Below are positions 2,230 to 19,914 of a stretch of DNA of 64,000 nt, piece after piece. The notes beneath the pieces are model-generated. The model did no database searches. It saw only the letters and a program-made list of their open reading frames with translations, and was not told the DNA's origin. The DNA is taken from NCBI GenBank assembly GCA_963825055.1, contig CAWGSK010000012.1, forward strand, positions 576,001 to 640,000, read 5' to 3'. Within the stretch, counting starts at the first letter, position 1. Every line of letters starts with the position of its first letter. The DNA is from an uncultured Gemmatimonadales bacterium (lineage in GTDB: Bacteria; Gemmatimonadota; Gemmatimonadetes; Gemmatimonadales; GWC2-71-9). The translations under genes and the position numbers were made by a program.

Positions 2230-3240
2230 TCAGGGCCCGGGTGCGGAGGGGCCTCCATCACTATGGCCTCCCGCGCCCGGAAGCGCGGTGGGTTCAGTCA
2301 CACCCTCGGGATCGTCAGGTGGCGGCGCGGGCCAGCCACGGTCCAGGGCGGCGCGCCTCGGCCGGTCCATGCGCCGGCGGTTCCAGGCGAGGAACCCGAG
2401 CGCGACGGCAATGACCCCCCACATCCCACCCGCCGCCAGCCAGATGAAGAAGTTGTACCGGCGCCGGAGCCCGCGATGCCATTCGCTTTCGAACTGACCG
2501 GTCGTGAGCCCGGTGGACGCACGGAGCGCCTGGTCGAAGTCCTCGTCGTTTACCAGGCGCGTCATGAACGGCTCGAGTTGTCCACCGGGAATCCGGCGCT
2601 GGATCTCCAGCACGGCCGACATGGCCAGCGCATAGGCGTCCTCCGCCTCGCTGGAGCGGCCACGCAGCCCGGCATCGAGCGTGCGGAAGTCCGGGAGCCG
2701 CCCGCGAAGAACCGTCCATGACAGGCGAGCCGCATCCAGCCGGTCCCACTCCCCGCTCGCCATGCCCGCATAGCCCTCGTCAAACCAGAGCGGCAGCCGG
2801 ACGTGCACCGCGTCGTGCAGCGCGAGGTGGGCCAGTTCGTGGCGCAGCGTCCTCGGGAGTTCGCCGAGATCGGCACGGAGAAGGATCGTCCGGCTTGAGG
2901 GAAAGGCGAGCGCCGCGCCCCACGATGGCGCCCTGCCCTGCGTGAAACGGCGCATCGCCGTCTCGTCCCGCACCACGACGAGTCGAAGGGGGCCCGGGTC
3001 GCGCCGGCCGAGTCCGGGCCAGTCAGCAGGGCGGTCGGCGATTTCGGCCAGGCCGACCGCAAGGGAGGCCTGCGCCTCCGGGGCTACCACCACCACGTTT
3101 CCCACGCGCACGGACCGGTAGCCCGAGTCGGGCTGCTGCGCCCGGACCGGGACCGTGACCGCGAGGAGAGCCGCGGTCAGGCCGAGCCGGAACGCGGCGG
3201 CTCGCCACCACCGGCGACGAGCTCGAGCATTTCCCGACAC
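2230..3240 (-). CDS. Peptidase MA-like (gluzincin) exported, membrane-anchored protein; start uncertain
   Basis: HELAH zinc motif followed by PLWFDEGYA, signal-like N-terminus, C-terminal TM helix. Confidence 0.7.
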   Translation of the reverse strand: MSGNARARRRWWRAAAFRLGLTAALLAVTVPVRAQQPDSGYRSVRVGNVVVVAPEAQASLAVGLAEIADRPADWPGLGRRDPGPLRLVVVRDETAMRRFTQGRAPSWGAALAFPSSRTILLRADLGELPRTLRHELAHLALHDAVHVRLPLWFDEGYAGMASGEWDRLDAARLSWTVLRGRLPDFRTLDAGLRGRSSEAEDAYALAMSAVLEIQRRIPGGQLEPFMTRLVNDEDFDQALRASTGLTTGQFESEWHRGLRRRYNFFIWLAAGGMWGVIAVALGFLAWNRRRMDRPRRAALDRGWPAPPPDDPEGVTEPTALPGAGGHSDGGPSAPGP

Positions 3241-4046
3241 CGTTTGCCCCACGGGTTGAAGCGGTTGGCCTTGGCGCCGTCCTCCCACGCCCGCCGCGCC
3301 TCGTTCCTCGCGCCGGAGAACCAGCGCGCGCGTCCCAGCTCGTACCACGCTTCCACCAGGTTCGGCCCTATCTCCAGTGTCTTACGGAAGAATGCCTCCG
3401 CATCCTCATACATGTCCCGCTCGAGATAGACCAGGCCGAGGTAGAAATGCGCGTAGAGCATGGCTTTCGGATCGTTGTTGAGCCGGATCGCCTTGGACAG
3501 GTGCTCGATGGCCTCACCAAAGATGCCCTTCTTCAGACAGATGTACCCGACGTTGATCCGGGCCAGCGAATTCTCCGGCTCGCGCATGAGCACGCGGGAG
3601 AAAGTTGACAGAGACTCGTCATATTCCTCGTGCAGCATCTGGGCCCAGCCGAGCAGGCTCTGCGCCTGGGTGTCCTCGGGCGCCAGGTCCAGCGCCTTGC
3701 GCAGCGCGTCGATGGCCCCGACGTGATCCCCGAGCGAGATGAGGCTCCAGCCCTTTTCGACAAACGTCGATGCTCCCAGGTGATCGGCGTGCAGTATCGG
3801 GCGGGCGGCGGCGAACTGGGGGCCCGAAGGCCGGTCGCCCCGGCGCGTCTGCTGCTTGTAGCGGTCCACCAGGGTGCGGATCTCCTCCCGCAGTTCGCCC
3901 AGTTCCTGGAGCGCCGTCTCCACTTCCTTGAAGAAACCGATGATGTCGCGCTTGATGGATTCGAGCGCGGCCGGGTCGGGCTCGGCCCCCAGTCGCCTGT
4001 CGAGTTCGGCGTACCGGGAACGGAACGGCTCGAGTGGGGCGCTCAT
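3177..4046 (-). CDS. TPR protein with N-terminal coiled coil (289 aa)
   Basis: About 5 TPR units (ALDLAPEDTQAQSLLG, AIRLNNDPKAMLYAHFYLG); ATGA overlap with cheW. Confidence 0.8.
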   Translation of the reverse strand: MSAPLEPFRSRYAELDRRLGAEPDPAALESIKRDIIGFFKEVETALQELGELREEIRTLVDRYKQQTRRGDRPSGPQFAAARPILHADHLGASTFVEKGWSLISLGDHVGAIDALRKALDLAPEDTQAQSLLGWAQMLHEEYDESLSTFSRVLMREPENSLARINVGYICLKKGIFGEAIEHLSKAIRLNNDPKAMLYAHFYLGLVYLERDMYEDAEAFFRKTLEIGPNLVEAWYELGRARWFSGARNEARRAWEDGAKANRFNPWGKRCREMLELVAGGGEPPRSGSA

Positions 4047-4540
4047 GAGCGCTTCCGGCTCCCGCGCGCGTCGGCGGCCGCGGTGGCCACCCCGGCCAGG
4101 GCGAGCCGTTCCTTAGAACTGAGCAGCCGTCCGGCGTTCAGCATCAGGATGGTGCGCTCGCCGCGACGGACGATGCCCGAGAGGAACTCGGCGGCGAGCC
4201 CCCGCACGATGGGCGGCGGCGGGGTAATGGTGGTGCTGTCGATCCGGAGAACCTCGATCACCTGGTCCACCAGGACCCCGACCCGGTCATCATCCAGCAG
4301 CAGGATCATGATGCGGACCTCCTCGGTGAGGCCGGCGGGGACCTCCAGGCGCTTGCGCAGGTCCACCACTGGCGCAACGCCATCGCCGTAGCCGACGACA
4401 CCCTCCAGGAAATCCGGCGCATGCGGGACGCGGGACGGACGCTCATAGCGGAGAATCCGCTCGAGCTGGAAAATATCGAGTGCGAATTCCTGGTCACCGA
4501 CCCGGAATACCACAATCTGGATTTCGTCGTCAGTCGGCAC
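4043..4540 (-). CDS. cheW: Chemotaxis coupling protein CheW
   Basis: QIVVFRVGDQEFALDI, VPHAPDFLEGVV, VGVLVDQV; GTG start 6 nt after GGAGG. Confidence 0.9.
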   Translation of the reverse strand: MPTDDEIQIVVFRVGDQEFALDIFQLERILRYERPSRVPHAPDFLEGVVGYGDGVAPVVDLRKRLEVPAGLTEEVRIMILLLDDDRVGVLVDQVIEVLRIDSTTITPPPPIVRGLAAEFLSGIVRRGERTILMLNAGRLLSSKERLALAGVATAAADARGSRKRS

Positions 4541-4979
4541 CACTGGCCTCCACCGGCTGCAACCTGGCCGCGAGCAGTTCGAGATCGAGCACCGGCACGT
4601 AGGCTCCTGCCTGGCCGGCCAGTCCTGCCGCCCACGGCAGCGGGGCGCCCTGTTCCACCGGACGCAGTTCTTCGTGAATGATCGCGACGGCGTCGTCCAC
4701 CTTGAGGCAGAGCACCCGCTCATGCACCCGCATGATCACCCCCATTCCTCCCATCGCCCCGTCTGCATCGTCGTCCCCGGCCGGTCCGAGCAGCCGGGAC
4801 AGGCTGAAGAGCGGGACCAGCCGGTTGCGCGCCGGGACGACCCCGAGCAGCGCCGTCGCGGTCGCCGGCACCGGGAAGTGCTCCGGCACGTCCACTACGG
4901 CTTCGACCGACTCCACCGGGAGCCCGATGCGGCGTCCGCCCGCCACCACGAGCAGGAAGGAGGCGACGCGAGGCGTCAT
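4530..4979 (-). CDS. cheW: Divergent CheW-domain protein
   Basis: [37 protein letters not shown]. Confidence 0.75.
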
Positions 4980-6037
4980 GCGACGGCCCGGTAGAGCAGC
5001 CCCGAGACATGCTCGGCGATGCGGCCGAGGGGCAGGACGACGTTCGCGCCGCCGGCCTGGACCGCGGCATTGGGCATTCCGTAAACCGTAGAAGTCGAGC
5101 GATCCTGCGCCACGCCGTAACCCCCCGCGTCGTGAATAGCGCGCAGGCCCGCCGCGCCGTCCCGCCCGAGTCCGGTCAGGACCACACCGATCGCACGGGG
5201 GCCATAAATCCGGCTGATGCTCTCGAAGAGCGGATCGGCGGCGGGGCGGACGCCCCAGATGGACGGTGACTGGTCGAGTGTAATGACGGGGCCGGCGGGG
5301 CCATCACCCACGCGCATATGATAACCGCCCGGGGCGACATAGGCGGTATCCGCCTGCACCACCGTGCCCTCCGACGCCTCCACGACGGCGAGCGCGCTCT
5401 GCGCGGCGAGGCGCGCGGCCAGGCCGCGGGTGAAATCGGGTGGCATGTGCTGCACGATGAGCACCGCAGCCCCGGTGCCGGTGGGCAGGTGCGGCACGAC
5501 GTCGGCCAGCGCGCGCGGCCCCCCGGTGGAGGCGGCGATGGCGACGGCGCGGGTCGCGGCCCCGATGGAACGCGAGGGCCGGGGAGGCGCCTGTGAGGGT
5601 CGGGCGAGGACCGGAAGCCGGCCGATGTCGGCCGCGCGAGCGGCGTCGAGCGCCTCCAGCAGCCGCGGTGCCAGCGCCCGGATGCCCTCCCGGCTCGGGC
5701 GGTTCTCCTTGGCCACGATCTCCACCGCGCCGAGTTCCAGCGCGCGGATCGCGCCCGCGCTGCCCGACCCGGCGTGGGAGCTGAAGACGACGATAGGGGT
5801 GGGGATCTCCGACATGATGTACCCGATCGCGCCCGCCCCGTCCAGCTGGGGCATCTCCAGATCCATCGTGATGAGGTCGGGGTGGTACTGGTGCACCTTC
5901 TGGAGGCCGTCGATTCCGTTCCGCGCGGTGGCCACGACGGCATACCGGCCGGAGTCATTGATGATCTCCGTGAGCATCTGCCGGATGAGCGCACTGTCAT
6001 CCACGATCAGCACCTTCGGCCGCTCATCAGATGACAT
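4976..6037 (-). CDS. cheB: Chemotaxis methylesterase CheB (receiver + methylesterase)
   Basis: VLIVDDS, TMDLEMP receiver; ASTGGP, VQHMP, TGLGRDG catalytic Ser/His/Asp. Confidence 0.95.
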
Positions 6038-6506
6038 ACTCGCCCTGTGCCACCGTGCGCACGCGGATCTCTCCGGTGTCGACACTGAACCAGAGAGACC
6101 GGCCCGCGTTGCCACCGACGAGCTCACCGGTGATGGGGATCGCGTGCTGGTTCAGCACGCGGCGGACCGAGACCACGTTGCGTTCTCCCATCTGGATGGA
6201 CCCCGGCGCGCTCAGCAGGGCGAAAAGGCCCGCCCCGCCAATCAGCCGGGCAGTAATGCGACCCGCATCGGCGCCCCGGGCCTGCATGGCCACGACCAGC
6301 GCCGGCACGGCGGTCTCCGGGACCTTGGCCGGGTTATCGCTCCGGGCCAGCGTGCGGGACGGCAGCATGATGTGCGCCAGGCCGCCCACCTTGCCCGCGG
6401 GGTCGTAGAGCGCGATCGCCACGCAGCTGCCGAGGCCCAGGGTGACCAGCGTATCCCCCGCGCCCCCGGTGTTCATGTCGGCCACCCGTACCATGATGTC
6501 GCTCAT
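6027..6506 (-). CDS. cheD: Chemoreceptor glutamine deamidase CheD
   Basis: [28 protein letters not shown]. Confidence 0.93.
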
Positions 6507-7318
6507 CCGGCGAGCCGGTAAATGCGTTCACGGACATCCACTATCTCAAAACGTTCACGGATGGGGCCGAGTATGGTTTCCACCTTTCCCAGGACGAGGA
6601 GCCCACCCGGGGCGAGGGCACGGGCGAACCCCTCAAAGATGCGGTCCTGCCCCGCGCGGTCGAAGTAGATGAGCACGTTGCGGCAGATGATCATGTCGTA
6701 GGGCGCCGCAACCGGCGGGTCACGATGCAGGTCGAGCCGGGCGACGCGCACCCGCCGCCGCAGCCGCTCGCTGATCCGGAGCTGCCCGCCATCCGGTTCG
6801 GTGTAGCGCTCGACGAGGGCCGGAGGAGTATCCTTGAAGAGGATCGTGGGATACAGGGCCGCCGCCGCGCGTTCCAGCGAGGCGCGGTCGATGTCAGTTG
6901 CATCCACCGTGACGCCCCCGAGTGCCCCGGGCCGACCGTTGCGTTCCGCGACCTCGGCCACCGCCATGATCAGGGAGTACGGCTCCTCGCCTGAGGCGCA
7001 CCCGGCGCTCCAGAGGCGGATCGGAACCCGCTCGAGCAGGCCGGCGAGCAGGTCGTCGCGGAGCCGGGCCCACAATTCCGGGTTCCGGAAGAAGGTGGTC
7101 ACGTTGATCGTGAGCACGTCGGCCAGCTTCCCGTACTCCGCCGGGTCGCGCTCCAGGACCTTGAGGTAGTCCTCGTAGCTTTCCACACCGTGTGCCCGCA
7201 TCCGGACCGCGATCCGCCGCTGAAGGCAGCGCGGCTTGTAGGACGCCGGGCAGAGCACCCCGTGGTCCGCGATGACTCGCGTGAGCGCCTCGAATCCGGG
7301 ATCCACCGGCGTGCTCAC
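6503..7318 (-). CDS. cheR: Chemotaxis methyltransferase CheR
   Basis: LTINVTTFFRNP, WSAGCASGEEPYS, ATDID, DMIICRNVLIYF; GTG start overlapping the upstream stop. Confidence 0.95.
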   Translation of the reverse strand: MSTPVDPGFEALTRVIADHGVLCPASYKPRCLQRRIAVRMRAHGVESYEDYLKVLERDPAEYGKLADVLTINVTTFFRNPELWARLRDDLLAGLLERVPIRLWSAGCASGEEPYSLIMAVAEVAERNGRPGALGGVTVDATDIDRASLERAAAALYPTILFKDTPPALVERYTEPDGGQLRISERLRRRVRVARLDLHRDPPVAAPYDMIICRNVLIYFDRAGQDRIFEGFARALAPGGLLVLGKVETILGPIRERFEIVDVRERIYRLAG

Positions 7319-8928
7319 TGCCCCGCCCCCAGCGTCTCGAGGTTGGTGCGGGCCAGCTCGTGCCCGGGATTGATCGCCGTCGCCCGCTCCCAGCAATGTC
7401 GCGCCGTGTCGGGGTCACGCTGCCGGTACGCGATATTGCCGAGCTTGAAGTAGAGGTCGTCTCCCAGCTCGGGCGCGAGGCGCGCCGCCCGCTGGTACGC
7501 GTCGCGGGCTTCGTCATACCGTCCCGCGCGGTACAGCAGGTCGCCGAGGTTCTTGGTGATCTGCGGAAGGGTTGGGGCCTCCTCCAGCGCCTCACGGACG
7601 AGCGACTCGGCCTCGCCCACATCGCCCCGCAGCTCCAGCAGGACGGCGAGATTGTTCCGGAGGACCGGGTTCGAGGGCCATGCCGCGATCCCCTCGCGGC
7701 CGACTTCCACCGCCTCGTCCACGTCATCCTGCAGGGCGGCGGACATCATGGCTGCCCAGAACCACAACGGCGATGGTGTCGCGTCCCCCCAGGCCTCGCG
7801 CGCATCGGTGAGCCGGTCCCGGGCCTTCGCGGCATCGTCCCTCCGGAGCGCCAGGATGGCCCAGCCGGTCAGCGCGGCGGGGCCTGCGCCCAGGTCCACG
7901 GCCCTGGCATACGCCCCCTCAGCGTCTTCATCCTGTCCGAGGTGCTCGAGGGCGACACCGAGATTGTGGCACACGTCGGCCCGGTCGCCGCCCAGGTCCC
8001 GGGCGCGGGCGAGGGCGTGCACGGCGTCGCCCCAGCGGGACTCCCGCAGCGCAATCTGGCCGAGCTGCCGGGGCGCGTCAGGATCAGCTGGACGCAGTTC
8101 CTCCACCCGACGGTACTCGCGCTTCGCTTCCTCGAGCATGCCTGTCTTGTAGAAGGCGACTCCCAGGTTCCGGTGCTCCTCCACCCGGACATCCCGCGCC
8201 CGCGGTGCCGCCGTGGCGGTGGTGCCGGTCCGGTGCAGGAAGCCCGCGGTGAGGAGGCCGTAAAGGGCCTGCCCGACCTCGAACTCCACCAGGCCGGCGT
8301 CCTCGATGAGCTGGCGGATGTCACGGGTGCCGTCCAGCAGGGGCAGCAGCCGCTGCTGGTGCGGCGACAGGCTCACGTCGGAACGATCGACGTGGTCGCT
8401 GTCCAGGGTGAAGATGATGTCGAAGCTGGGGATTTTCTTCTCGATAATGCTCCACTCGTCCACCCGCCTGGCACCTTCGAGGAGGAGCGACTCGGGATTG
8501 ATCTGGACGAGGAAGTCCTGCTCGTCGGGCGTGATGCCCGCCTCAAAGTTGAACGTGCCGCTGTTCCAGGTGAACAGATAGTAGACCGCCTCCTCGATCT
8601 GGAGCCGGATATACGACTCCAGGTCGGCCCGTGAGATCGCGCCGTCATCAACCAGGATCTCCCCGAGTTTCCTGCCGCGGTCGGTCGCCTGGCGGGCCAT
8701 CGCCTGCTCCAGTTGCGACTGGCTGATCTGCCCGTTCTTGACGAGGATATCGCCCAGGCGGTCCCGGCGGTTTACGATGGACGCGTAGGTGATCCGGCCA
8801 CGCTCGAAGTAGATGTATCCGAAGTTGTGGCGGTCGGCAACGGCAAGACAGCCGGTCTTCCGTCCGAGCGCGAGCAACTGGAGGACGTCCGGGAGGCTCG
8901 CTTCCTTGAGACTGCCGCGGATCGCCAT
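7315..8928 (-). CDS. DUF4388 (PatA-N/PATAN-like) domain + MshEN-like insert + TPR protein (537 aa)
   Basis: GSLKEASLPDVLQLLALGRKTGCL, W.SGTFNF, LLLEGARRVDEW; RLGDILVKNG repeat; C-terminal TPRs. Confidence 0.85.
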   Translation of the reverse strand: MAIRGSLKEASLPDVLQLLALGRKTGCLAVADRHNFGYIYFERGRITYASIVNRRDRLGDILVKNGQISQSQLEQAMARQATDRGRKLGEILVDDGAISRADLESYIRLQIEEAVYYLFTWNSGTFNFEAGITPDEQDFLVQINPESLLLEGARRVDEWSIIEKKIPSFDIIFTLDSDHVDRSDVSLSPHQQRLLPLLDGTRDIRQLIEDAGLVEFEVGQALYGLLTAGFLHRTGTTATAAPRARDVRVEEHRNLGVAFYKTGMLEEAKREYRRVEELRPADPDAPRQLGQIALRESRWGDAVHALARARDLGGDRADVCHNLGVALEHLGQDEDAEGAYARAVDLGAGPAALTGWAILALRRDDAAKARDRLTDAREAWGDATPSPLWFWAAMMSAALQDDVDEAVEVGREGIAAWPSNPVLRNNLAVLLELRGDVGEAESLVREALEEAPTLPQITKNLGDLLYRAGRYDEARDAYQRAARLAPELGDDLYFKLGNIAYRQRDPDTARHCWERATAINPGHELARTNLETLGAGQ

Positions 8929-10898
8929 CAGGACAGTCCCTCGAGCAGGCGGTCCGCGGGCGTTGGCCAGTCCCAGATCATCTTCTCCCGATTCCGCACG
9001 ACACCGCGCCCGATGACCCCGCTCGTCCGCGAACCATTGCGCCGTGGGGGACGCGGCGCCGCGCCCTCGAGCACGTCGCGGGCGAACCCCGCCGAGAGGG
9101 TGGCGGACTGGGACTCCGCCTTACGGGCCAGGCGCTGGACGATCTCCTGGAGCGCACGCACACTGTCCACTGCGTGGCCCGCGAGGTACTGGACCAGCTC
9201 CGGGTCAGCGGCTTCACCATCGAGCATGTTCCGCACAATGGCCCGCCGGACTTCCGGGCCGGGCACGGGCAGCTCCGCCACGAGGCCACCTTCGAGCCGG
9301 CTGGCGAGGCGCGGGGCGAGACCCTCGAGTTCGCCGGGAGGCCGGTGCGAGGTGAACATCATCTGCCGCCCCTGCTCCTGCAGATGGTTGAACAACCAGA
9401 AGAGTTCCTCCTGGGTACGGTCGGTGCCGGCGAGCAGGTCAATATCGTCCAGGAGGAAGGCCGTGGCTCGGCGGTAGCGTTGCCGCCACCAGTCCACCCG
9501 GTCCTGGTCGATGGCCGCGATGAGTTCTTCCACGAACTCCCGCGCATTGAGGCACGCAACGACCGCATCGGCCTGGGCCGCCAGCAGGTTGCCCACCGCG
9601 TGCAGCAGGTGAGTCTTCCCGGTGCCGGGGGGGCCGACCAGTACCAGCGGGTTGTAGCGCTGGCCGGGGGAGTCAGCCACGGCCAGTGCGGCCCGCACGG
9701 CCACCCGGTTCGTCTCGCCCTCGGCAAAATCCTCCAGCTGCCAGTGGGGGGAGGGCGCCGGCAGCGGGGTAGCTCCTTCCCGCGCCGCGGCGACCAGTTT
9801 CTCGACCTCGGCCACGCGGTCCGGGTCGCGGAAGGCCGGGTCTCCGGCCACGGACGGGTCAATGGCCTCCGCCTCGGCGGCCAGCAATCGCAGCCGCTCG
9901 ATGTCGGTTTCGAACCGCTCGACTTCCTGCTCGACGTCCCGCTCGCCCGGGTCCTCGAACAGGTCGCGGAGCCGCGCCACGCGATAGCCCTCGCCCTCCC
10001 AGCGGGCGATCGCTTCCCCGAGACGCACGCGCCACTGCTCAAGCTGTCGCGCGACCGTGGTCGAGATCTCGCTCAGGAAGGAGCCGAACTCATCGTCCGA
10101 GGACGGCGTGAAGGCCGGCCCGTCTTCCCCGCCCTCCGGCGGCAATGCGTCGGCGTCCGCGGGAGGCTCCACCCCGGCACGATCGGTACGCAGGATCTCG
10201 CGGGCGCGGGCTTCGCCGAGCGGTTCCTGGTTGGCCATCTGCCAGGCGATGAGCCGGTTGAGCGCGCCGAGCAGTTCCCGGATGCTGGCGACGTCGAGCG
10301 TGGCGGCGGCCTCGATGACACCGGGGTCGAACGTGAGCCCGCGGCTCTCGGCGTGCCGGCGCAGGATGGCGACCCGGGTTTCGTAGTCCGGCGCGGCAAT
10401 ATCAATCACCAGTCCCCCGGCGAAGCGGCTGATGAGCCGCTCGTCCAGCGACTCGATTTCCGATGGGGGGCGGTCGCTCGTCAGCACAATCTGGTGGCCG
10501 GCGGTCTGCATGGCATTGACCAGCCGGAGCAGCTCGGCCTGCATCTCGCGACGCCGGGCCAGGAACTGCACGTCGTCGAGCAGGAGCAGGTCGAGTTCCG
10601 CGTAGCGGCGGCGGTAGGCATCGCCCTGCCCGGCCCCGACCGCGGCGTGGAACGCCTCGACGAAGTCATCGAGGGTCTGGTAGGCGATCCCGAGACCGGG
10701 CGCGATCGTCCGGGCGGCCTGCGCGATCGCCATCAGCAGGTGCGTCTTGCCGAGCCCGGGACCGCCATAGATGAAGAGGGGGTTATACACCACGCCGGGA
10801 CTCTCGCTCACCGCACGCGCGGCGGTGGCCGCAAGCCGGTTGGCCGCCCCGACCACGAAGGTCTCGAACCGGAATCGGTGATTCAGCTCGAGTGTCAT
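8928..10898 (-). CDS. Tandem double DnaA/Hda-type AAA+ ATPase lacking DnaA domains I and IV (656 aa)
   Basis: Two modules: FETFVVGAANRLA..YNPLFIYGGPGLGKTHL..LLLDDVQFL..TSDRPP..RLISRF and [49 protein letters not shown]. Confidence 0.9.
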   Translation of the reverse strand: MTLELNHRFRFETFVVGAANRLAATAARAVSESPGVVYNPLFIYGGPGLGKTHLLMAIAQAARTIAPGLGIAYQTLDDFVEAFHAAVGAGQGDAYRRRYAELDLLLLDDVQFLARRREMQAELLRLVNAMQTAGHQIVLTSDRPPSEIESLDERLISRFAGGLVIDIAAPDYETRVAILRRHAESRGLTFDPGVIEAAATLDVASIRELLGALNRLIAWQMANQEPLGEARAREILRTDRAGVEPPADADALPPEGGEDGPAFTPSSDDEFGSFLSEISTTVARQLEQWRVRLGEAIARWEGEGYRVARLRDLFEDPGERDVEQEVERFETDIERLRLLAAEAEAIDPSVAGDPAFRDPDRVAEVEKLVAAAREGATPLPAPSPHWQLEDFAEGETNRVAVRAALAVADSPGQRYNPLVLVGPPGTGKTHLLHAVGNLLAAQADAVVACLNAREFVEELIAAIDQDRVDWWRQRYRRATAFLLDDIDLLAGTDRTQEELFWLFNHLQEQGRQMMFTSHRPPGELEGLAPRLASRLEGGLVAELPVPGPEVRRAIVRNMLDGEAADPELVQYLAGHAVDSVRALQEIVQRLARKAESQSATLSAGFARDVLEGAAPRPPRRNGSRTSGVIGRGVVRNREKMIWDWPTPADRLLEGLS

Positions 10899-11497
10899 CC
10901 GAGGTTCCCCCCGGCGGCAAGCCGCTGGAGCACGCCTTCGGAAATGCCGCGAAGTGTCTCGAAGACGCCTCCGCCGCGGAGCGCGTCGGCCGGGTAGCTC
11001 CGCACGTTGCGGAAGTTGAGGGCGTCATCCATCGCGGCGCGGTCCAGGACCAGGTCGCGCGGCAGGTCCTGCTTGTTGTACTGCAGGACGAGGGGAAAAT
11101 GACGGAGCTCGATGCCCTGCTGCAGCAGGTTGGCCTGCAGGTTCTGGAGGCTCTCCAGATTCTCGTCGAACCGACGGGCCTGACTGTCGGCGACGAAGAC
11201 GACGCCATCCGCGCCCTGAAGGACGAGCTGGCGGGTGGCATTGTAGTACACCTGTCCCGGCACGGTGTAGAGCTGGAATCGCGTGGAAAACCCGGAGATG
11301 GTCCCGAGGTCGAGCGGCAGGAAATCAAAGAAAAGCGTCCGGTCCGCCTGGGTGGCGAGCGACACCATGCGGCCTCGCCGCGCATCCGGCACGCGACCGT
11401 AAATGTACTGCAGGTTCGTGGTCTTCCCGGAGCGGCCCGGGCCGTAGTACACGATCTTGCAGGTGATTTCACGTGCGGTAAAGTTGACCAGCGACAT
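10895..11497 (-). CDS. mglA: MglA-family small Ras-like GTPase
   Basis: CKIVYYGPGRSGKTTNLQYI, DRTLFFDFLPL, LYTVPGQ, GVVFVADSQ, QYNKQDLP; closely matches the Myxococcus MglA pattern. Confidence 0.95.
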   Translation of the reverse strand: MSLVNFTAREITCKIVYYGPGRSGKTTNLQYIYGRVPDARRGRMVSLATQADRTLFFDFLPLDLGTISGFSTRFQLYTVPGQVYYNATRQLVLQGADGVVFVADSQARRFDENLESLQNLQANLLQQGIELRHFPLVLQYNKQDLPRDLVLDRAAMDDALNFRNVRSYPADALRGGGVFETLRGISEGVLQRLAAGGNLG

Positions 11498-11500
11498 CGG

Positions 11501-11962
11501 CTAGCGTCCAAACAGCGAGCGGAGGCTCGCGTTGAGGTCACGTTCAAAGTCGGGCGCCAGGGCGGTCCGGCTGGCCGTCTCCGGCGGCGCGGCGGCCTCG
11601 AGCTGGGTGACCAGGTCGTCGAAAAAGATCTGGACGAGTCCCAGCGACGTCTCGTTGCCATAGACGACGAGCGCGATCCACCCACCCCCCGGCATCTCGA
11701 AGCGCGAGAGGAAATGGCCATGGGTGTGCCCCTGGTGCGCGACGCGCTCGAACGGTGGCCAGTCCATGATCCGCGCGAGTTCCTGGGCGGACGCCACGAT
11801 GCCCGCGCCCAGCGCCGCCGTTGACATCACGTCAATCGCGCGGGTAAACCCATGCTGCGCGATCACCTGGCCCGTCGTCGTCATAAGGAGGGCGACACGC
11901 GCGGAAGACTCCCGCAGGAACGCGTTGAGCGGGCCGGCCACCCAGGGTTCGACCGTGCGCAT
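11501..11962 (-). CDS. mglB: MglB-like roadblock/LC7 protein (putative GAP)
   Basis: ARVALLMTTTGQVIAQHG, AALGAGIVAS, TSLGLV, C-terminal helix DLNASLRSLFG; directly upstream of mglA. Confidence 0.85.
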   Translation of the reverse strand: MRTVEPWVAGPLNAFLRESSARVALLMTTTGQVIAQHGFTRAIDVMSTAALGAGIVASAQELARIMDWPPFERVAHQGHTHGHFLSRFEMPGGGWIALVVYGNETSLGLVQIFFDDLVTQLEAAAPPETASRTALAPDFERDLNASLRSLFGR

Positions 11963-12312
11963 CAGGCCACCCGCTCCGCGGCGCGCGCCATCTCAAGCCT
12001 CACGCGCCCCGCGTTGGCATCCCGCTCACCGATGGCGACAATCACGATTTCCTCTCCCGCCGGCATGACGAACACGGCTCCTCCGGCGGCCTGCAGGTGC
12101 AGGAAGGCCGGTGCTCCGGCCGCCGCCACACGGGCGGCGGCCTCGAGCCGGGCCAGCAGGCTGGCCGCCAGTGCGGCCAGGGCCGGACCGCGGACATCCT
12201 CCATGACCGACTCGGCGATCACGATCCCGTCGCGCCGGCTCACCAGCATGGCGCCCTGGATCCCGCTGAGGCACACCAGCAGCTCGAGGGCTGCCTCGTG
12301 TTCGGCGATCAT
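11962..12312 (-). CDS. Roadblock/LC7 domain protein (116 aa)
   Basis: GIQGAMLVSRRDGIVIAE, ALAALAASL, NAGRVRLEM; ATG at 12312 overlaps the upstream stop. Confidence 0.85.
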   Translation of the reverse strand: MIAEHEAALELLVCLSGIQGAMLVSRRDGIVIAESVMEDVRGPALAALAASLLARLEAAARVAAAGAPAFLHLQAAGGAVFVMPAGEEIVIVAIGERDANAGRVRLEMARAAERVA

Positions 12313-13127
12313 GGGCCCGACTCCAGCCATTCGCGGGCCGCCCGCGCCGCCCGCACCGCCGTCAGGGCTACCCGACCCATCGGTTGCGAGGCCTCGCGTG
12401 CCACAAGGAGGAGCGTGTCTTTCGTGGGGGAGACCAGGACGAAATTGGCCCGCTCCGTCTCCACAGCCAGGCTCTCCCATTCACCGAGCTCGAGCAGGCG
12501 CGCCGCGCGGGATGCCTCCCGCGACACCCCAGCCAGCTCCGCGGAGACCTCGTCACTTACGTCCACCCGCTCCGGAGTGCGCAGCCGGCCGTCAAGCCGC
12601 CGGCCGGCCGCATCCACGAGCAGGAGTCCGCTCGCCCCCCCTGGCAGAGTGGCAAACGCCGGACCGGGCTCCGGCGCCTGAAGCTCATCCGATGGGCCGT
12701 TGACGGGGGTGGTGACCGGAGGGCGAGCCATCGCCGCGCGCACCCGGCGCACGGCGGGCTCCAGCGAGGCATCGTCCGGCAGGGCGGTCCGGGCATACTC
12801 CAGATGCTCGAGTGCGCGGGGGAAGTCCTGCGCCGTGAAGTAGAGGAAGCCGATGCCCTTGTGGGCGCCCGGATGCGCAGGGTCGAGGCGGAGGGTGATG
12901 TCCCACTCGTCGAAGGCCCGCTCGAAGTCGCCCTGGTCGGCGAGGATCCGGGCGTAGAGATCGTGCGCCGCCGGGAGCTCGGCATAGCGACCCAGCCCCT
13001 GCAGGGCAACCTTCGCCGCGGCCTCCAGCCGGCCGTCACGGCGCAGTGCCTCGCCCAGCTCCAGGAAAACCAGGCTGGTCGGGTCGGCGGCCAGTTCCGC
13101 CGTCAGCGCGCGAATGTCGTCAGCCAC
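12309..13127 (-). CDS. TPR + roadblock/LC7 fusion protein
   Basis: N-terminal DPTSLVFLELGEALRRDG TPRs; C-terminal GLLLVDAAG..LELGEWESLAVE..PMGRV roadblock pattern. Confidence 0.75.
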   Translation of the reverse strand: MADDIRALTAELAADPTSLVFLELGEALRRDGRLEAAAKVALQGLGRYAELPAAHDLYARILADQGDFERAFDEWDITLRLDPAHPGAHKGIGFLYFTAQDFPRALEHLEYARTALPDDASLEPAVRRVRAAMARPPVTTPVNGPSDELQAPEPGPAFATLPGGASGLLLVDAAGRRLDGRLRTPERVDVSDEVSAELAGVSREASRAARLLELGEWESLAVETERANFVLVSPTKDTLLLVAREASQPMGRVALTAVRAARAAREWLESGP

Positions 13128-14265
13128 TCAAGCCTCGCAAGACATGCTCCAGAGTCCCGGCCGCGTCACGGGCGGCCCGAACCGATTCGTCGTGTCCCAT
13201 TTCCTCAGGTCCGCGGGCACCAAGCCATTGCTCCCAGTGCTCCCGCGCCAAATGGAACCGTCCCAGTTGTGCCGCGGCGGTTCCCGCGTGGCGGTGTGCC
13301 GCCGCCAGCCCCGGGTCGAGCTGCAGCGCGCGCTCGGATGCACCCAGGGCATCCGCCGAGCGTCCCGCCGCGAGGAGGACCCGGGCCAGCACCAGATGCG
13401 CGAGGGGCTGTTCCGGATGCACGACGGCGGCGTCCCCGGCCGCGACCAGCGCAGCCTCGACCCGCCCGGCGGCAAGGTCGTCCTCCGCGCGTGCGATGGC
13501 CATGGCCAGCCCGCCCTCTCTCCCGATCTCAGCGGCCGGAGGCACCGCCGTGTCCTCAAGGAGGATAATGCCCGCCGTGGCCAGGCCGAAGAGCGTCTTC
13601 GCGACCTCGAACTCGGAGCGGTTGAGCGTGATGGACAGGTCATGGACGTTACGGCTGCCGTCAATGGAGGCGAGCACCTCCCACTCGAACGGCATGAGGT
13701 CCAGCGGCCCCGCGTCGGTTCCCACGGGCGCCAGCCGGGCGACGATGCCCAGATGCGGAATGCGGGTCTCGATGCGTGACCACTCGTCGATCCGCCGGGC
13801 GGCTTCCATCACGAGGGCCTCAGTCGGGATGCGGACGGCCGCTTCCATCGACATGCGGGTGGGATCGCCCTCCTCGAAGGAGAAATATCCCTCCGACCAT
13901 CCGAGGAGCTCGAACACGACCTCCTCGGTCTGCCGTCGGATAATCCGGTCCACCTCGCGGCGGCTGATCGACCCGGCCTCGACCAGGAGATCGCCGAGCC
14001 GGCGCGTGTCGCCGGCCTCCTGCAGGGCGCGCACGCGCGACAGTTCCTCCTCGGACACCTTGCCGGCTTTCAGCAGGAGACCGCCCAGCGGGTGTGGGTT
14101 GGTCCGGATCTCAGCCCCGATCACCGCGCCGCTCTCGAAATACACCGTGCCCGCGTTCTGTCGCAGCGCCGAGCGCACGCGGAGCACACCGGTCTTCCGG
14201 CTCAGGTCGAGGAGCTGGAAGACATCGTGAATGCCCAGCTCGCGGAGGGGGCCCTCGATCGCCAT
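13120..14265 (-). CDS. Second DUF4388 + MshEN-like + TPR protein (381 aa)
   Basis: GPLRELGIHDVFQLLDLSRKTGVL, WSEGYFSF, MEAARRIDEW; paralog of 7315..8928. Confidence 0.85.
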   Translation of the reverse strand: MAIEGPLRELGIHDVFQLLDLSRKTGVLRVRSALRQNAGTVYFESGAVIGAEIRTNPHPLGGLLLKAGKVSEEELSRVRALQEAGDTRRLGDLLVEAGSISRREVDRIIRRQTEEVVFELLGWSEGYFSFEEGDPTRMSMEAAVRIPTEALVMEAARRIDEWSRIETRIPHLGIVARLAPVGTDAGPLDLMPFEWEVLASIDGSRNVHDLSITLNRSEFEVAKTLFGLATAGIILLEDTAVPPAAEIGREGGLAMAIARAEDDLAAGRVEAALVAAGDAAVVHPEQPLAHLVLARVLLAAGRSADALGASERALQLDPGLAAAHRHAGTAAAQLGRFHLAREHWEQWLGARGPEEMGHDESVRAARDAAGTLEHVLRGLSG

Positions 14266-14268
14266 GGG

Positions 14269-16947
14269 TCAGGCCGTCTGGCGTGTGAGGATGTACTGGA
14301 GGTCGCGCGCACTGCGGCTCTCGGCCCGCGCGGCCAGCGCGAAGGATGATTGCGGATGCAGCCGGACCAGCCGCTCCCATGCGCGCACCGCCTCGGGGAA
14401 CCGGCGCAGTCGTGTCAGGCCGACGCCCGCGTAGTAGAGGCCGTCAGCCCGGTCCGGCACGAGGCGAAGCAGGCGCAGGAAGGCCTCGATGCCACGCTCG
14501 GTCCGCCCCGCGTCGAGCAGGGTGCGGCCGAGCAGGGCGAGCGACTCGAGGTCGGACGGGTCACCCTCGAGCGCGCCCACGAGCAGGCGGATGGCCTCGG
14601 CATGTTCGCTGTTACGCCGGAGGAGGTCGGCGAGCGCGTGAATCGCCTCGGCATACGTCGGCAGGAGGTCGAGCGCGTGCTCGTAGGCCATGCGCGCGGC
14701 GATCCAGTTCTCCCGCCGTTCCTCCAGTTCCCCGAGCTCGCGCCAGAGCTGGGCCCGGCCGGTATCGAGCTGCAACGCGCCCTGGCAGGCCTCGACCGCC
14801 GCGTCCACCTCGCCAAGCTGGGCGCAGATCCGGGCCTGGAGCTGCAGCAGGTCGGCACGACCGGGCGCGCGGGCCCGCCCGGCCCGGATCAGATCGAGGG
14901 CCGCAACGGGATCACCGGTGCGGTGCCGGACCGTGGCTGCCGCCAGCAGGCCGTCGACGTTGCCCGGATCCGAGGCGATCAGGGCCTCGGCCAGGGGCGC
15001 CGCCTCCCGGGAGCGGTCCAACGCCACGAGGGAACGCACCTCGCCAAGCAGCGCGTGAGGATCGTCGCCCAGTACCTCGCGCGCCTCGCGGTAGCGTTCG
15101 AGCGCCTCGCCGTGCAGGCCGCGCCGGGCGTACACGTCGGCCAGGAGCAGCCGGGCGGGCGCCTCGGGCGCGCCGCGCGCGATGGCGCGGTCCACCTCCG
15201 CCGCCGCCCGGTCGAGCATCCCCTTGTGCAGGCAGTCGCGCGCCAGGGCAAGCGGGTCCCCCTCGGGCGCGGGACCCGGCTCTCCCGCCCGCGGCGCGAG
15301 GTCGCGGAAGATCTGGTCGAGCAGCCGGGGGTCGAAGCTGAAGGCCTCGCCCACCTCCGCGGCACTTACGTCGCCGGAGATCTCCGGCACGATGGAGATG
15401 GTCGGGTCCTCGTACTGGAGGTCAATTGTCAGCGAGAACTTCTGCGGCACGTAGTACGGCTCCAGCTCGAGGGCGCGCTTGGTCTCCCGCAACGCCCCGT
15501 CGAAGTCGCCGAGTTGGCTCAGGGTGAAGCTCAGGTTGTAATGCGCGGAGGCGTTGTCAGGCGCGCCGTCCACGGCGCGGGCAAAGGCATTGCGTGCGTC
15601 CTCGAAGCGCTTGAGTTCAGTGAGGACGAGGCCGATTCCGTTCCACGCGAGCGGGTGATCGGTGTGATCCTCGAGCACGCGCTGGAACGCCTCAAGCGCG
15701 AGCTGGAGCCGCTGGCGGTGCAGCAGGAGGAGCCCGAGGTTGAGGCGGGCCGTCACGAGATCCGGCGTGCCCCGCAGGGCTTCCTGGAACGCGTCGGCCG
15801 CCACTTCCGTGTCCACGCCGTGCGCGAGCAGGACGCCGAGGTTGTTCCAGGCGAGGGCATACCCGCCGTCGAGATCAATCGCGCGCCGGTACGAGCGGGC
15901 TGCTTCGTCCCGGCGGCCTGCGTGGTGGAGGCAGACTCCCCGCTCGTTCCAGAGCTTGGGCGAATCCTCGAACTCGCGGATCAGTTCCTCGTAGAGGTCC
16001 AGGGCGGCCGAGAGGTCGCGGCGCAGCAGGTGGACCTCGGCGATTGCCTGCATGGCCAGGCGGCGATCCTCCCCGTGTTCCAGGGCGAGGCGATATTCGC
16101 GGAGCGCCTCGGCGTGGTATCCCTTCTGCCGGAACGCGAGACCAAGGTTGTAGTGGGCGAGGGCGCCGCCCTGGCTGATCCCGGGCCGGGTGGGCCCGGC
16201 TGGGCGGGATTCCCCGACGTGCTCCGGTTCGCGCAGTGAAAGGTTGGTGTGCGCGCGGGCGAAGGTCGGGTTCAGGGCGATGGCCTGCTTCGTGGCCGCC
16301 TTCGCCGCCTCGTGCTCACCGAGATCGCCGTACAGGAAGGCCAGGAGGTAATGCGCGTCGGCGTTGTCGGGGTTCAGGCGCAGCGCCGCCTCGAGCGCCG
16401 TGCGGGCGGGATCGTTCAGGCCGCGGTGGTACAGCGCCTCGCCGAGGTAGAACAGGGCAAGCGGGCTGTCGGGGTCGAGCTCGACGGCATGCTGGAAATG
16501 GTCCGTGGCCGCCTCGAGGTCACCGCTGGCCTTCTCGGCGAGGCCGAGCTGGATGAGGGTGGCCGGATCGTCGGGACGATGGCCCAGCAGCAGGGTGAAC
16601 TCGCGGATGGCCTCGGGGTGGTGGCCCAGGGCGCCGTAGATGCGGCCCAGTTCCCAGCGTGCCTCGAGGTCCTCACCCGAGTCCCGAATCCTCTCGCCGA
16701 GCTCGGCGACGCGACGGTCGTAGTAGCCGGTGTTGCGGTAGGCGATCTCCAGATTGGCCTGCGCGACCTGCATGCGGGGGTCGAGTTCCAGCGCGCGGGT
16801 GAACTCGCTGACCGCCTCCGGGACCAGTCCTTTCTGGAAATAGAGGACGCCCAGGTTGTTGTGGGCGCCCGCGTCGGAAGGGTCGATGCGCCCGGCGAAG
16901 GAGCGGAGGACCGCAAGATCGCGCTCCGACAGCACCTGGCCGGCCAT
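14269..16947 (-). CDS. Large cytoplasmic TPR-repeat protein (892 aa)
   Basis: Many canonical TPRs (AHNNLGVLY, AHYNLGLAF, AWNNLGVLL, AWNGIGLVL); no signal peptide. Confidence 0.88.
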   Translation of the reverse strand: MAGQVLSERDLAVLRSFAGRIDPSDAGAHNNLGVLYFQKGLVPEAVSEFTRALELDPRMQVAQANLEIAYRNTGYYDRRVAELGERIRDSGEDLEARWELGRIYGALGHHPEAIREFTLLLGHRPDDPATLIQLGLAEKASGDLEAATDHFQHAVELDPDSPLALFYLGEALYHRGLNDPARTALEAALRLNPDNADAHYLLAFLYGDLGEHEAAKAATKQAIALNPTFARAHTNLSLREPEHVGESRPAGPTRPGISQGGALAHYNLGLAFRQKGYHAEALREYRLALEHGEDRRLAMQAIAEVHLLRRDLSAALDLYEELIREFEDSPKLWNERGVCLHHAGRRDEAARSYRRAIDLDGGYALAWNNLGVLLAHGVDTEVAADAFQEALRGTPDLVTARLNLGLLLLHRQRLQLALEAFQRVLEDHTDHPLAWNGIGLVLTELKRFEDARNAFARAVDGAPDNASAHYNLSFTLSQLGDFDGALRETKRALELEPYYVPQKFSLTIDLQYEDPTISIVPEISGDVSAAEVGEAFSFDPRLLDQIFRDLAPRAGEPGPAPEGDPLALARDCLHKGMLDRAAAEVDRAIARGAPEAPARLLLADVYARRGLHGEALERYREAREVLGDDPHALLGEVRSLVALDRSREAAPLAEALIASDPGNVDGLLAAATVRHRTGDPVAALDLIRAGRARAPGRADLLQLQARICAQLGEVDAAVEACQGALQLDTGRAQLWRELGELEERRENWIAARMAYEHALDLLPTYAEAIHALADLLRRNSEHAEAIRLLVGALEGDPSDLESLALLGRTLLDAGRTERGIEAFLRLLRLVPDRADGLYYAGVGLTRLRRFPEAVRAWERLVRLHPQSSFALAARAESRSARDLQYILTRQTA

Positions 16948-16953
16948 CGGGAT

Positions 16954-17574
16954 TCAGGACAGCCGGATGGCGTCGAAGACGGCCCGGAGCGACGCCACGT
17001 CGGGCATGAGCAGGAAGTGGCCGCGCAGTCCCTCGGCCTCCTTGGCGAACTGGAACTCGGTCTCGAGGCAAAAGACGAACTCGCGCTCGTGGCCGAAGTT
17101 CAGGTAGGCGGACGTCAGCACCGCGCCCAGCAGGTCGATTACGAGGCTCGGGACGCTGGGCAGGAGCATCATCCCCATGAAGTCGCTCAGCGCGTTGAGG
17201 TAGGCGCTGCTGAGAATGTTGCCCGCCTCCTTGAGGCCGGACTGCTCCATGACGCCGAAGTCCGTCGTGGTGGGGATGGGCCGCCGGAGGAGAATGTCAC
17301 AGAGCACCTTCGCGGAGTCTTCCGGGAAGAGAATCATGGTGCGTCCCGTCAGGTCGCCCATCATGTGCATGAGCACGGCCGCGACGACATCATCCGTCTT
17401 GCCCAGCACATTGGCGACTTCCTCGAGCCGCGTGATGTTCACCTCGGGGACACTGATCATGATCTTGTGGCCCGTCATCTGGGACAGGGCGGTAGCCGCA
17501 TGCCCCGCGCCGATGTTGGCCACCTCGCGCAGGGCGTCGAGCTGCAGCGCCTCCAGGTTCCGGATGTCGTCCAT
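16954..17574 (-). CDS. cheC: CheY-P phosphatase CheC
   Basis: Two E..N motifs (DALREVANIG, SGLKEAGNIL), SVP; ATG after GAGGAG. Confidence 0.92.
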   Translation of the reverse strand: MDDIRNLEALQLDALREVANIGAGHAATALSQMTGHKIMISVPEVNITRLEEVANVLGKTDDVVAAVLMHMMGDLTGRTMILFPEDSAKVLCDILLRRPIPTTTDFGVMEQSGLKEAGNILSSAYLNALSDFMGMMLLPSVPSLVIDLLGAVLTSAYLNFGHEREFVFCLETEFQFAKEAEGLRGHFLLMPDVASLRAVFDAIRLS

Positions 17575-17583
17575 ACCCACTCC

Positions 17584-19464
17584 TCAGGTGAGAGCTGCAG
17601 CGTCGAGAATGAGCGCGGGGTGACCATCCCCGAGGATGGTGGCACCGCTGAACACCGGGAGCATGCCCCGGGGCGCATCGAAGGCCTCCACCACGATCTC
17701 GTGCTGGCCCAGAAGCTGGTCCACCACCAGGGCGGCGCGGCGCTCGCCGGCCACGAGGATGATGGTGGGCCGGCGCCCGGTTACCGCCATCGCCGGCGCG
17801 GATATCTCGAGCACGTCGCGCAGGTGGCGCGTGGGGATGACGTCATCCCGGAGCACCAGCGCCTCGCGTCCGCCGAGCGAGGTGACGCGCTCGGGATCGA
17901 ATTGCACCGTCTCCGCCACGTGGGTGAGGGGCACGGCGTACCGCTCCTCGCCCACCCCGGCCAGCAGCACCTTGAGCACGGCCAGGGTGACCGGCAACTG
18001 CATGGTGACCGTCGTGCCCCGCCCGGGATCTGTCCGGAGGCTGACCCGCCCGCCCAGCTGCCGCACGCGGGACAGGACGGCGTCCACCCCCACGCCGCGG
18101 CCGGAGACGTCCGTCACCTGCTCGGCCGTGCTGAACCCGGCGCGCGAGAGGATCCGCAGCAGCTGGTCATCCGGGAGGGTGCGCGCGTCAGGCTCGACCA
18201 GCCCCTCCTTCCGGGCACGCGTGAGGACCCCCTCCCGATCGATCCCCCGGCCATCATCGATCACCCGGATCGCGACGCCCTGACGGTCCCGCGCGGCCGA
18301 CAGCACGATCCGGCCGGCGGCGGGCTTGCCCAGCCGCTCCCGCTCGCGGGCGGGCTCGATGCCGTGGTCCACCGCGTTCCGCAGCAGGTGCAGCAGCGGG
18401 TCGCCGATCTCGTCCAGGATCGCGCGGTCGAGCTCGATATCCCCGCCCTCGATCTGGAACTCCACCCGCTTGCCGAGCTGGCGCGCGAGATCGCGGATAA
18501 TCCTGGGGTAGCGGTCGAACACCTGCCACACCGGAGTCAGTCGCACGGCGATCACTTCGCTCTGGAGCGTGTTCACCAGCCGCGTGATCCTGGCGCTCAC
18601 CGCCTCGAGCTCCGGCGACGCCGAGCCGGTCACGACGTCGGTCAGGCGGCCGCGCGCCACCACCAGCTCACCCATCACGTTCATGAGCGTGTCGAGCCGC
18701 CCGAGGTCCACCCGGATATGCCGGCGGGCGCCGCTGCCGGTCTCGCCGGGCGCGACCTCGGCATGGACAGGCGCCTCACCGATGGCGACCTCGTCGATGT
18801 CACCGGCGGAGCGGATGGCCGCCTCCAGCGCGGCGTCGTCCGCGCTGCCGTCGAAGCGGAACGAGAAGGCGCCATCGAAATCGTCACGCTCGAATGCCGC
18901 GACCGCCGGGCGCACCCCGTCCAGCCGCCCGAGGCCCTCCGCCTTCCGGAGCGCGATCGTCGCGCGGCCGCCGCGCATGATCGCGTCGCGACGGACACGG
19001 ACCCGGACCAGGCGTCCCGCGGCGGGCTCCGCCCTTGACGCGGAAGCCGCGCCGGGCATGGCAATCGGGAACTCGGCCGTGCCCATGCGGGCGGCGGCAG
19101 CATCGAGATCGGAAAGCAGCGACCCGAGATGCGCCCCGGCATCCTCGCCCCTGACGGCGATGTCGATCCCCTGTTCCAGCGCGTCCACCGATCGGAACAG
19201 CAGCTCGAGGACCTCTGGAGAGGCAGGGGTAATCCGCTCGCGCAGCAACGCGAGGAGGTTCTCCGCGCGATGGGCGAGGTCGGTGACGGGCCCGTAGCCC
19301 ATCGTCGCCGCCATGCCCTTGATCGTGTGCATGGCACGGAAGATCCCGCCGACCGGCTCCACCGAAGCCGGGTCGCGCTCCAGCTCCAGCAGGAGCCGGT
19401 TGCACGTCAGGAGATGTTCGCGACTTTCCGCGAGGAACAGCGAGGCGTAGCGGGAGACGTCCAT
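17584..19464 (-). CDS. cheA: Chemotaxis histidine kinase CheA
   Basis: Hpt FRAMHTIKG, P2 domain, HLLRNAVDHG, DDGRGID, GFST, SGRGVG, C-terminal CheW-like P5. Confidence 0.96.
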   Translation of the reverse strand: MDVSRYASLFLAESREHLLTCNRLLLELERDPASVEPVGGIFRAMHTIKGMAATMGYGPVTDLAHRAENLLALLRERITPASPEVLELLFRSVDALEQGIDIAVRGEDAGAHLGSLLSDLDAAAARMGTAEFPIAMPGAASASRAEPAAGRLVRVRVRRDAIMRGGRATIALRKAEGLGRLDGVRPAVAAFERDDFDGAFSFRFDGSADDAALEAAIRSAGDIDEVAIGEAPVHAEVAPGETGSGARRHIRVDLGRLDTLMNVMGELVVARGRLTDVVTGSASPELEAVSARITRLVNTLQSEVIAVRLTPVWQVFDRYPRIIRDLARQLGKRVEFQIEGGDIELDRAILDEIGDPLLHLLRNAVDHGIEPARERERLGKPAAGRIVLSAARDRQGVAIRVIDDGRGIDREGVLTRARKEGLVEPDARTLPDDQLLRILSRAGFSTAEQVTDVSGRGVGVDAVLSRVRQLGGRVSLRTDPGRGTTVTMQLPVTLAVLKVLLAGVGEERYAVPLTHVAETVQFDPERVTSLGGREALVLRDDVIPTRHLRDVLEISAPAMAVTGRRPTIILVAGERRAALVVDQLLGQHEIVVEAFDAPRGMLPVFSGATILGDGHPALILDAAALT

Positions 19465-19468
19465 GGTA

Positions 19469-19831: not shown

Positions 19832-19914
19832 GCGAACGCCTCCGTGCCTTGTGCCTCGGTGATCCTGCGGCCCAAGCGGGCGGCTCCCGCCGCACTGCCT
19901 GGGAACGACTGCCA

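Follow-up and report, generated by a model that had tools for sequence, protein, structure and literature searches.

Why does a gene cluster for chemosensory signalling and cell polarity contain a protein built from two copies of the core of DnaA, the replication initiator? The gene in question lies on the reverse strand at 8928..10898 of a 64,000-nucleotide stretch of DNA from an uncultured Gemmatimonadales bacterium (the window), where it forms a single reading frame of 656 amino acids (P0001). Directly downstream lies a partner gene for a protein with a PATAN domain, an MshEN-like motif of the kind that binds cyclic di-GMP (c-di-GMP) and tetratricopeptide repeats (TPRs). Relatives of the DnaA-derived protein can lose its ATPase parts and still keep a short tail that is predicted to dock on the partner, so the DnaA core probably now serves as a switch for cell polarity or motility. 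With some reserve, we favour the narrower reading of an ATP switch that is tethered by its tail and acts in polarity or pilus signalling. New here are the occupation of one gene slot by two, one or no ATPase modules, the mini-proteins made of a helix and the tail, and the PATAN-MshEN-TPR gene as the constant neighbour. Throughout, f, g, G, L and P label the families, genera, genomes, loci and proteins of the analysis.

Pfam Bac_DnaA matched two stretches of the protein (E 2.5e-97), and neither Bac_DnaA_C nor DnaA_N was found among the 25 of 27 Pfam families listed for the window. As the earlier note had proposed, domain I is not present, the AAA+ region starting at residue 5, and the domain IV helix-turn-helix that reads DnaA boxes is missing too, with nothing structured beyond residue 611 in the AlphaFold2 model. 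This model, built from 81 rows, had a mean predicted local distance difference test score (pLDDT) of 85.5 and a predicted TM-score (pTM) of 0.49, and resolved both AAA+ modules in full, lids included, along with a disordered stretch (241-267), a helical domain (270-373) and a low-confidence end. Pfam and the model together give the following order on the reverse strand: AAA+ module 1 (residues 5-237, 10188..10886), a variable disordered spacer (241-267, 10098..10178) with pLDDT below 50 and poor alignment, an acidic amphipathic helix defined by alignment (268-288, 10035..10097), a WxxxGY...DP helical domain recognised by profile searches (289-375, 9774..10034), AAA+ module 2 (386-612, 9063..9743) and the C-terminal tail (636-656, 8931..8993). 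The region between the modules, previously read as an acidic helical linker of about 140 residues, is therefore not plain, part of it being disordered and part a folded and conserved domain. The best structural matches of the model were to DnaA domain III (TM 0.96 to 8bv3). The modules are 42% and 35% identical to the canonical DnaA of the same genome and 39% identical to each other; this separate canonical dnaA, of 471 amino acids, adjoins dnaN on another contig (C20). An assembly chimera was ruled out, as full-length two-module relatives are common and 274 of the 401 genomes that represent the phylum here gave a match to the linker. Homologues with a single module, which the earlier note would have taken as a sign of a chimera, do occur, as natural forms.

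The residues of the two modules point to different roles. B. subtilis numbering was transferred by alignment to 8btg, and residue roles were taken from the accessible part of PMC10721633, where N187, I190, R202, K222 and E228 are assigned to single-stranded DNA (ssDNA) contact and base capture. Walker A, Walker B, the box VII arginine and the sensor II arginine were found in both modules, as had been claimed from the window's copy. Among 166 double-form sequences, module 1 keeps Walker A in 165, Walker B in 166, sensor I in 166, sensor II in 164 and the arginine finger in 162, yet N187, I190 and K222 are each retained in 1 and E223 in 0, when canonical DnaAs keep them in 140-141 of 141. Judged by alignment and residue counts, module 1 thus has an intact ATP site yet lacks the DNA-contact residues of DnaA. 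Module 2 keeps Walker A in 143 of the 166 (0 of 19 in f7), sensor I in 35, sensor II in 128 and N187 in only 3; the arginine finger (163), R260 (164) and E228 (165) are nearly invariant. The SHR at its sensor I is present here as reported and peculiar to this copy, the sensor I aspartate occurring in 0 of 113 near relatives. In other relatives module 2 loses its lid, its Walker motifs or is missing as a whole. A dead nucleotide pocket beside an intact finger typifies an activator in trans or an end cap, and the finger of module 2 could be aimed at module 1 or at canonical DnaA.

The reading of a tethered switch draws on a natural series at one gene slot, defined by loci upstream of the partner, which holds two, one or no ATPase modules. 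Module 2 is lidless in f4, f7 and part of f2. One module with linker and tail remains in f5, in two f8 members, in G082 and in proteins such as P0197 (cluster label Longimicrobium), and one module with the tail in G202 and three f12 genomes, where the f12 neighbour is a TPR-only protein. In 15 genomes from four genera, the slot is reduced to a frame of 60-81 amino acids that holds only the acidic helix and the tail, so that the tail is the sole element common to every form. Since forms with one module and with none exist in nature, the covalent AAA+ dimer proposed before is not essential, and the suggestion of a DnaA-derived ATPase repurposed as a signalling scaffold gains support from modules lost in 15 genomes with the tail kept beside its PATAN-TPR partner. 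In 81 of 81 non-f12 loci, 79 checked by script and 2 by eye, the frame immediately before the partner bore the tail, and its stop overlapped or abutted the partner start in 58 of the 79 scored loci. The partner was matched in 295 of the 401 genomes and was missing from 2 of the 274 linker-positive genomes, both fragmented; the matches to it in G283 and G005 were weak. The mini-genes (L085-L092 and L153-L159, in genera g55, g61, g69 and g74) are conserved and small enough for gene callers to miss. In G112, the gap separating mini-gene and partner contains a short tandem repeat of about 15 bases (L089:9988-10092).

The loss of the modules coincides with changes in the partner. The window's partner (7315..8928, reverse strand; DUF4388b, 537 amino acids, assigned by Pfam and synteny) consists of PATAN/DUF4388, an MshEN-like insert and TPRs, and its start is overlapped by 1 nucleotide by the stop of the DnaA-derived gene. 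The MshEN-like c-di-GMP-binding motif (residues 56-107, 8608..8763) scored 55.3 bits with NF053729 (cut-off 38). This insert and the last TPRs were retained in 65 of 65 aligned ATPase-bearing loci. In contrast, partners of 14 of the 15 mini-proteins carried a clean 53-amino-acid deletion of the MshEN-like motif, and the last TPRs were missing from all 14 full-length ones.

A structural prediction, made for a relative, supports binding of the tail within the groove formed by the partner's TPRs. The mini-protein of G182 and its own partner gave complex scores of 0.82, 0.80 and 0.82 against 0.03 for the best control, with contacts agreeing in at least 94% and a partner pLDDT of 71-72. Of the solved pairs, 116 of 157 attained the score mark, as did 2 of 215 mismatched ones; with the alignments used here these counts are only approximate. 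The prediction drew on 14 of 15 mini-protein rows. The predicted interface consists of mini-protein residues 33-61, the tail, laid along the groove, with the acidic helix outside the confident part. Mapped onto the window, the groove would span residues 283-485 of the partner (7474..8082), its asparagines corresponding to N322, N425, N426 and N460; these are largely retained in the TPR-only neighbours of f12. By homology, the tail of this copy (residues 636-656) would dock on its own partner in the same way.

Taken together, these observations suggest an adaptor with an ATP switch attached. The C-terminal tail would dock on the co-translated PATAN-MshEN-TPR protein, in the groove of its TPRs. 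Module 1, by its residues, may bind ATP and oligomerise head to tail like DnaA, no longer on DNA. Module 2 would mainly contribute an arginine finger that works in trans, the simplest target being module 1 in its own chain or in an adjacent one, and may thus act as a built-in activator or cap. Judging from the co-loss and from fusions found elsewhere, the c-di-GMP-type motif and last TPRs of the partner probably tune the ATP cycle. Given the gene context, the output would most likely go to the MglA/MglB and Che polarity system controlling type IV pili.

Several points weigh against this scheme. The AlphaFold2 model, with its pTM of 0.49, does not fix the relative position of the two modules, and 113 of the 166 double-form sequences are close kin, the whole set spanning six groups. 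The complex was folded for the mini-protein of G182, not for this copy. Peptides in TPR grooves are common among solved structures, so the pass of the G182 complex may reflect likeness to them. Conservation of the interface columns exceeds that of the remaining TPR columns by a small margin only (0.58 versus 0.53, p 0.065), and one f8 partner has other residues at several of the asparagines predicted to make contact. The co-loss of ATPase modules and partner domains amounts to one or two events, not 15, and is accordingly suggestive only: in a quick partner tree, which left out three f12 loci, L158 and L163, 13 mini loci formed one clade nested among two-module forms (100 in the Shimodaira-Hasegawa-like approximate likelihood ratio test, SH-aLRT), and the G112 locus was placed apart without strong support. 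Finally, module 2 keeps I190 (160 of 166), R202, E223 and E228, a canonical-looking face that is retained in 19 of 19 f7 sequences despite their dead pocket.

This last point is the main argument for a polarity-tethered replication regulator, in which the tail would anchor the protein and the finger face of module 2 would dock on canonical DnaA-ATP, capping its filament or triggering hydrolysis as Hda does, without a clamp. The face, together with the finger and R260, would suit such a role, since residues of this kind are noted to contact protein and DNA alike (section 8 of PMC10721633, in its accessible part), and one tree groups the family with DnaA of the same class (SH-aLRT 96). Nevertheless, the finger would find just as good an acceptor in module 1, 15 genomes have deleted both modules and yet retain the gene, and dnaA is located on another contig. 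No DnaA-box match was found in 18 kb around the gene, a weak test given that the control near dnaA yielded only 1 match. A pattern for the clamp-type (beta-clamp-binding) motif was matched by 0 of 113 sequences. Of the proposal that the protein caps, poisons or stimulates DnaA filaments, what stands is the retained finger face, with no other positive evidence, and we regard such a regulator as unlikely. Like Hda (TIGR03420; PDB 5x06), the protein is a domain-III-only AAA+, and its module 2 resembles a trans arginine-finger donor. Unlike it, the modules are dispensable in this family and the match is far weaker than that to DnaA. Hda itself was rejected, as the summed two-module score (189.5) is below the curated cut-off (194.8) and none of the 113 sequences matched the clamp-type motif. 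A second initiator was also rejected: domains I and IV are lacking, the ssDNA residues are replaced and a canonical dnaA sits beside dnaN elsewhere.

A direct effector or regulator of MglA is suggested by the start of the gene, which overlaps the mglA stop by 4 nucleotides, as had been noted. The gene upstream (10895..11497, reverse strand; domain search) encodes a small GTPase, presumably MglA, judging by its motifs and an MglB-like neighbour. Wherever close loci have sufficient sequence it stands immediately upstream (44 of 44), the partner lies downstream in 39 of 39, and the order of genes is constant wherever contigs of related loci extend far enough. The acidic helix, moreover, has no assigned partner. 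The coupling to mglA therefore holds for this locus and its close relatives, but it is not constant: mglA is missing from 22 of 22 f7 loci, four g61 loci and G202, all of which keep the downstream PATAN-TPR gene. This makes the PATAN-TPR protein the fixed partner, with MglA linked more loosely. The f7 loci consist of ileS, the DnaA-derived gene, the partner and a peptidase-like gene, with no mglA or che gene in the stretch fetched. At the level of genomes a link to MglA remains plausible, as all 22 f7 genomes with the DnaA-derived gene have an mglA-like gene elsewhere, and no mglA match was found in 16 of 18 f6/f7 genomes without it. As evidence against a direct MglA effector, an mglA-like gene also occurs in some genomes that match neither the DnaA-derived gene nor its partner. 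In Myxococcus, MglA binds the TPR protein SgmX (PMC11580455, accessible part), so the MglA link here may likewise run through a TPR protein. Direct action on MglA therefore appears improbable. That the modules are a decaying passenger, with only helix and tail of importance, is more improbable still, for although module 2 is repeatedly eroded or lost, both modules are gone in one or two lineages and the divergent single-module forms of f8 and f12 show wear, the catalytic residues of module 1 are kept in 162-166 of 166 double-form sequences from six groups and module loss coincides with loss of partner domains.

The tethered-switch reading can be set in a wider frame. DnaA cores may have been recruited, possibly several times, as signalling switches off DNA: tethered by the tail to a PATAN-TPR receptor of the c-di-GMP type in Gemmatimonadota, fused to MshEN in another lineage, and joined in Thermoplasmata archaea to the helical repeat of the linker, to DUF835 or to a pilus-type ATPase, with module 2 of the present gene as a built-in finger activator. 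We put this forward tentatively, as a view that may well not hold. MshEN is fused to two domain-IV-less DnaA cores in eight clusters, and further cores of this kind are fused to DUF835, an inactive KaiC-like domain (PMC5847659, accessible part). A profile of the linker, searched over 1.84 billion representatives, gave 398 matches, and among the best 150 of these were seventeen proteins of 500-3090 amino acids with tandem copies of the domain. Clusters of four of the seventeen carry Thermoplasmata labels; a DnaA core closes four of the tandem-repeat proteins (E about 1e-70), and DUF835 opens two. The match is not compositional: it scores 23-36 bits per domain, reversed controls no more than 6.6, and a profile built from 85 archaeal repeats matched only the DnaA-derived gene in the window's own genome (E 1.3e-14). 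These archaeal proteins share the WxxxGY...DP domain with a domain-IV-less core after it, and differ in having 7-22 copies and cores with ssDNA-contact residues. As such residues are mostly kept in archaeal and other fusion cores, these cores need not work like the Gemmatimonadota protein. Comparison of the N-terminal domain of the archaeal repeat proteins with PATAN gave a probability of 1.5% (E 0.035), and their gene context is given by one 2.9-kb contig with an adjoining hydrolase-like gene. A search of the ESM Atlas with the linker returned no usable match, and a fold search gave a best Z of 5.9 (root-mean-square deviation 5.0, 126 aligned) within a range of common helical arrangements.

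Regarding the origin of the modules, the two group in a single clade (96/96), the outcome that a tandem duplication would give. The source of that clade differs between trees. The one with SH-aLRT 96 for same-class DnaA had 25 of 115 rows dropped. Approximately unbiased tests (p-AU, 69 of 115 rows dropped) gave 0.11 for a single origin with archaeal cores and 0.31 with all signalling-type cores, values that neither reject nor establish either origin.

Known systems share parts of this arrangement. With DnaA domain III (PF00308, TIGR00362; PDB 8bv3, 8btg, 2z4r, 3r8f) the protein has in common the fold, 35-42% identity, the nucleotide motifs and the arginine finger; it departs from it by two core copies, the loss of N187 in both modules and of I190, K222 and E223 in module 1, the tail, the repeat domain and the signalling locus. 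MshE and PilB couple a c-di-GMP-type motif to an oligomeric ATPase, and pilus ATPases are under c-di-GMP control (PMC11580455, accessible part); here the putative c-di-GMP-binding motif lies in trans (P0299-P0309 have it fused), and a DnaA-type core takes the place of the secretion ATPase. The Myxococcus module of MglA/MglB, SgmX and FrzS shares MglA, roadblock proteins, long TPR scaffolds and Che genes, and the accessible accounts of it contain no DnaA-like component. Group 1 MglA occurs in Gemmatimonadetes, with PATAN genes adjoining group 1 mglA (PMC4316618); the main text of that paper, as far as accessible, has 0 occurrences of 'dnaa', and its table S2 of gene neighbourhoods might include this gene. 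In the literature searched, by listings and abstract openings with few subscription papers covered, nothing was found on the two-module protein. The family is real and conserved and apparently undescribed.

To our knowledge, characterised AAA+ proteins of the initiator clade (DnaA, Hda, DnaC, IstB) act on DNA or DNA machines. If our reading is correct, the tethering of a DnaA core that has shed its contacts with DNA to a scaffold for polarity would represent an initiator ATP switch reused for signalling in a large soil phylum, and recruitment in several lineages would define an undescribed class of c-di-GMP-gated, initiator-derived ATPases of pili and polarity in bacteria and archaea. The natural series of two, one and no modules and the predicted contact between tail and groove make it directly testable. 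Besides, the gene is auto-annotated as dnaA in many records, which can mislead analyses of origins and replication.

The linker was present in 161 of 166 genomes of the window's own family and in 0 of 30 of f6; tallies over the 401 genomes include one unpublished genome (G155) and kin that are not independent. Gemmatimonadota labels are carried by 44 of 45 related loci. The L029 contig, labelled Acidimicrobiia, carries a full cluster of the Gemmatimonadota type in the same gene order and is possibly mis-binned. L020, L030 and L046 were dropped from the linker alignment (stops in L020 and L046), and seven further rows were never included.

Other proteins with related parts were recorded. P0128, P0147, P0165, P0167, P0207 and others are archaeal proteins with 7-22 copies of the WxxxGY...DP repeat, which has no Pfam family, and some such proteins also carry DUF835, zinc ribbons or a KaiC-like domain. 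P0299-P0304, P0308 and P0309 have about 1900 residues, with MshEN, a DnaA core, a long helical region unrelated to the linker repeat and a second DnaA core. In P0327, from Thermoplasmata, a domain-IV-less core is fused to a type II/IV secretion (pilus-type) ATPase. P0354 and P0410 belong to another family, with such a core between unannotated domains. P0421 and P0422 are DnaAs of about 490 residues with domains I and IV and an unusually high score, as if they held extra core sequence. Apparent fusions to DUF4388 (P0324, P0131) look like frameshift or assembly joins and were set aside.

Further upstream on the reverse strand follow three roadblock/LC7 (MglB-like) genes, one with TPRs (11501..13127, domain search), a second DUF4388-TPR gene (381 amino acids) with an 892-amino-acid TPR gene (13120..16947, Pfam), and cheC, cheA, cheY and cheW (16954..20604), cheC being assigned by Pfam. 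The downstream arm (2230..7315, reverse strand; Pfam and synteny) contains cheR, cheD, cheB, two cheW, a 289-amino-acid TPR gene and a peptidase MA-like gene. We take cheA, cheY and cheW of the upstream arm and cheW of the downstream arm to be such from their translations. The che cluster as a whole (2230-20604) has cheA, cheY, three cheW, cheB, cheC, cheD and cheR, with no receptor gene seen within it, and follows what are presumably ileS, a DksA/TraR-like gene and lspA. The own genome, 87% complete, gave no flagellin match; it has PilB above the cut-off, 12 GGDEF matches and three receptor matches, on other contigs than the che cluster. A second mglA paralogue, 50% identical, lies at G000:C12:190833-191501. 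Even the reduced loci of f7 retain the peptidase MA-like gene (2230-3348) alongside the DnaA-derived gene and its partner.

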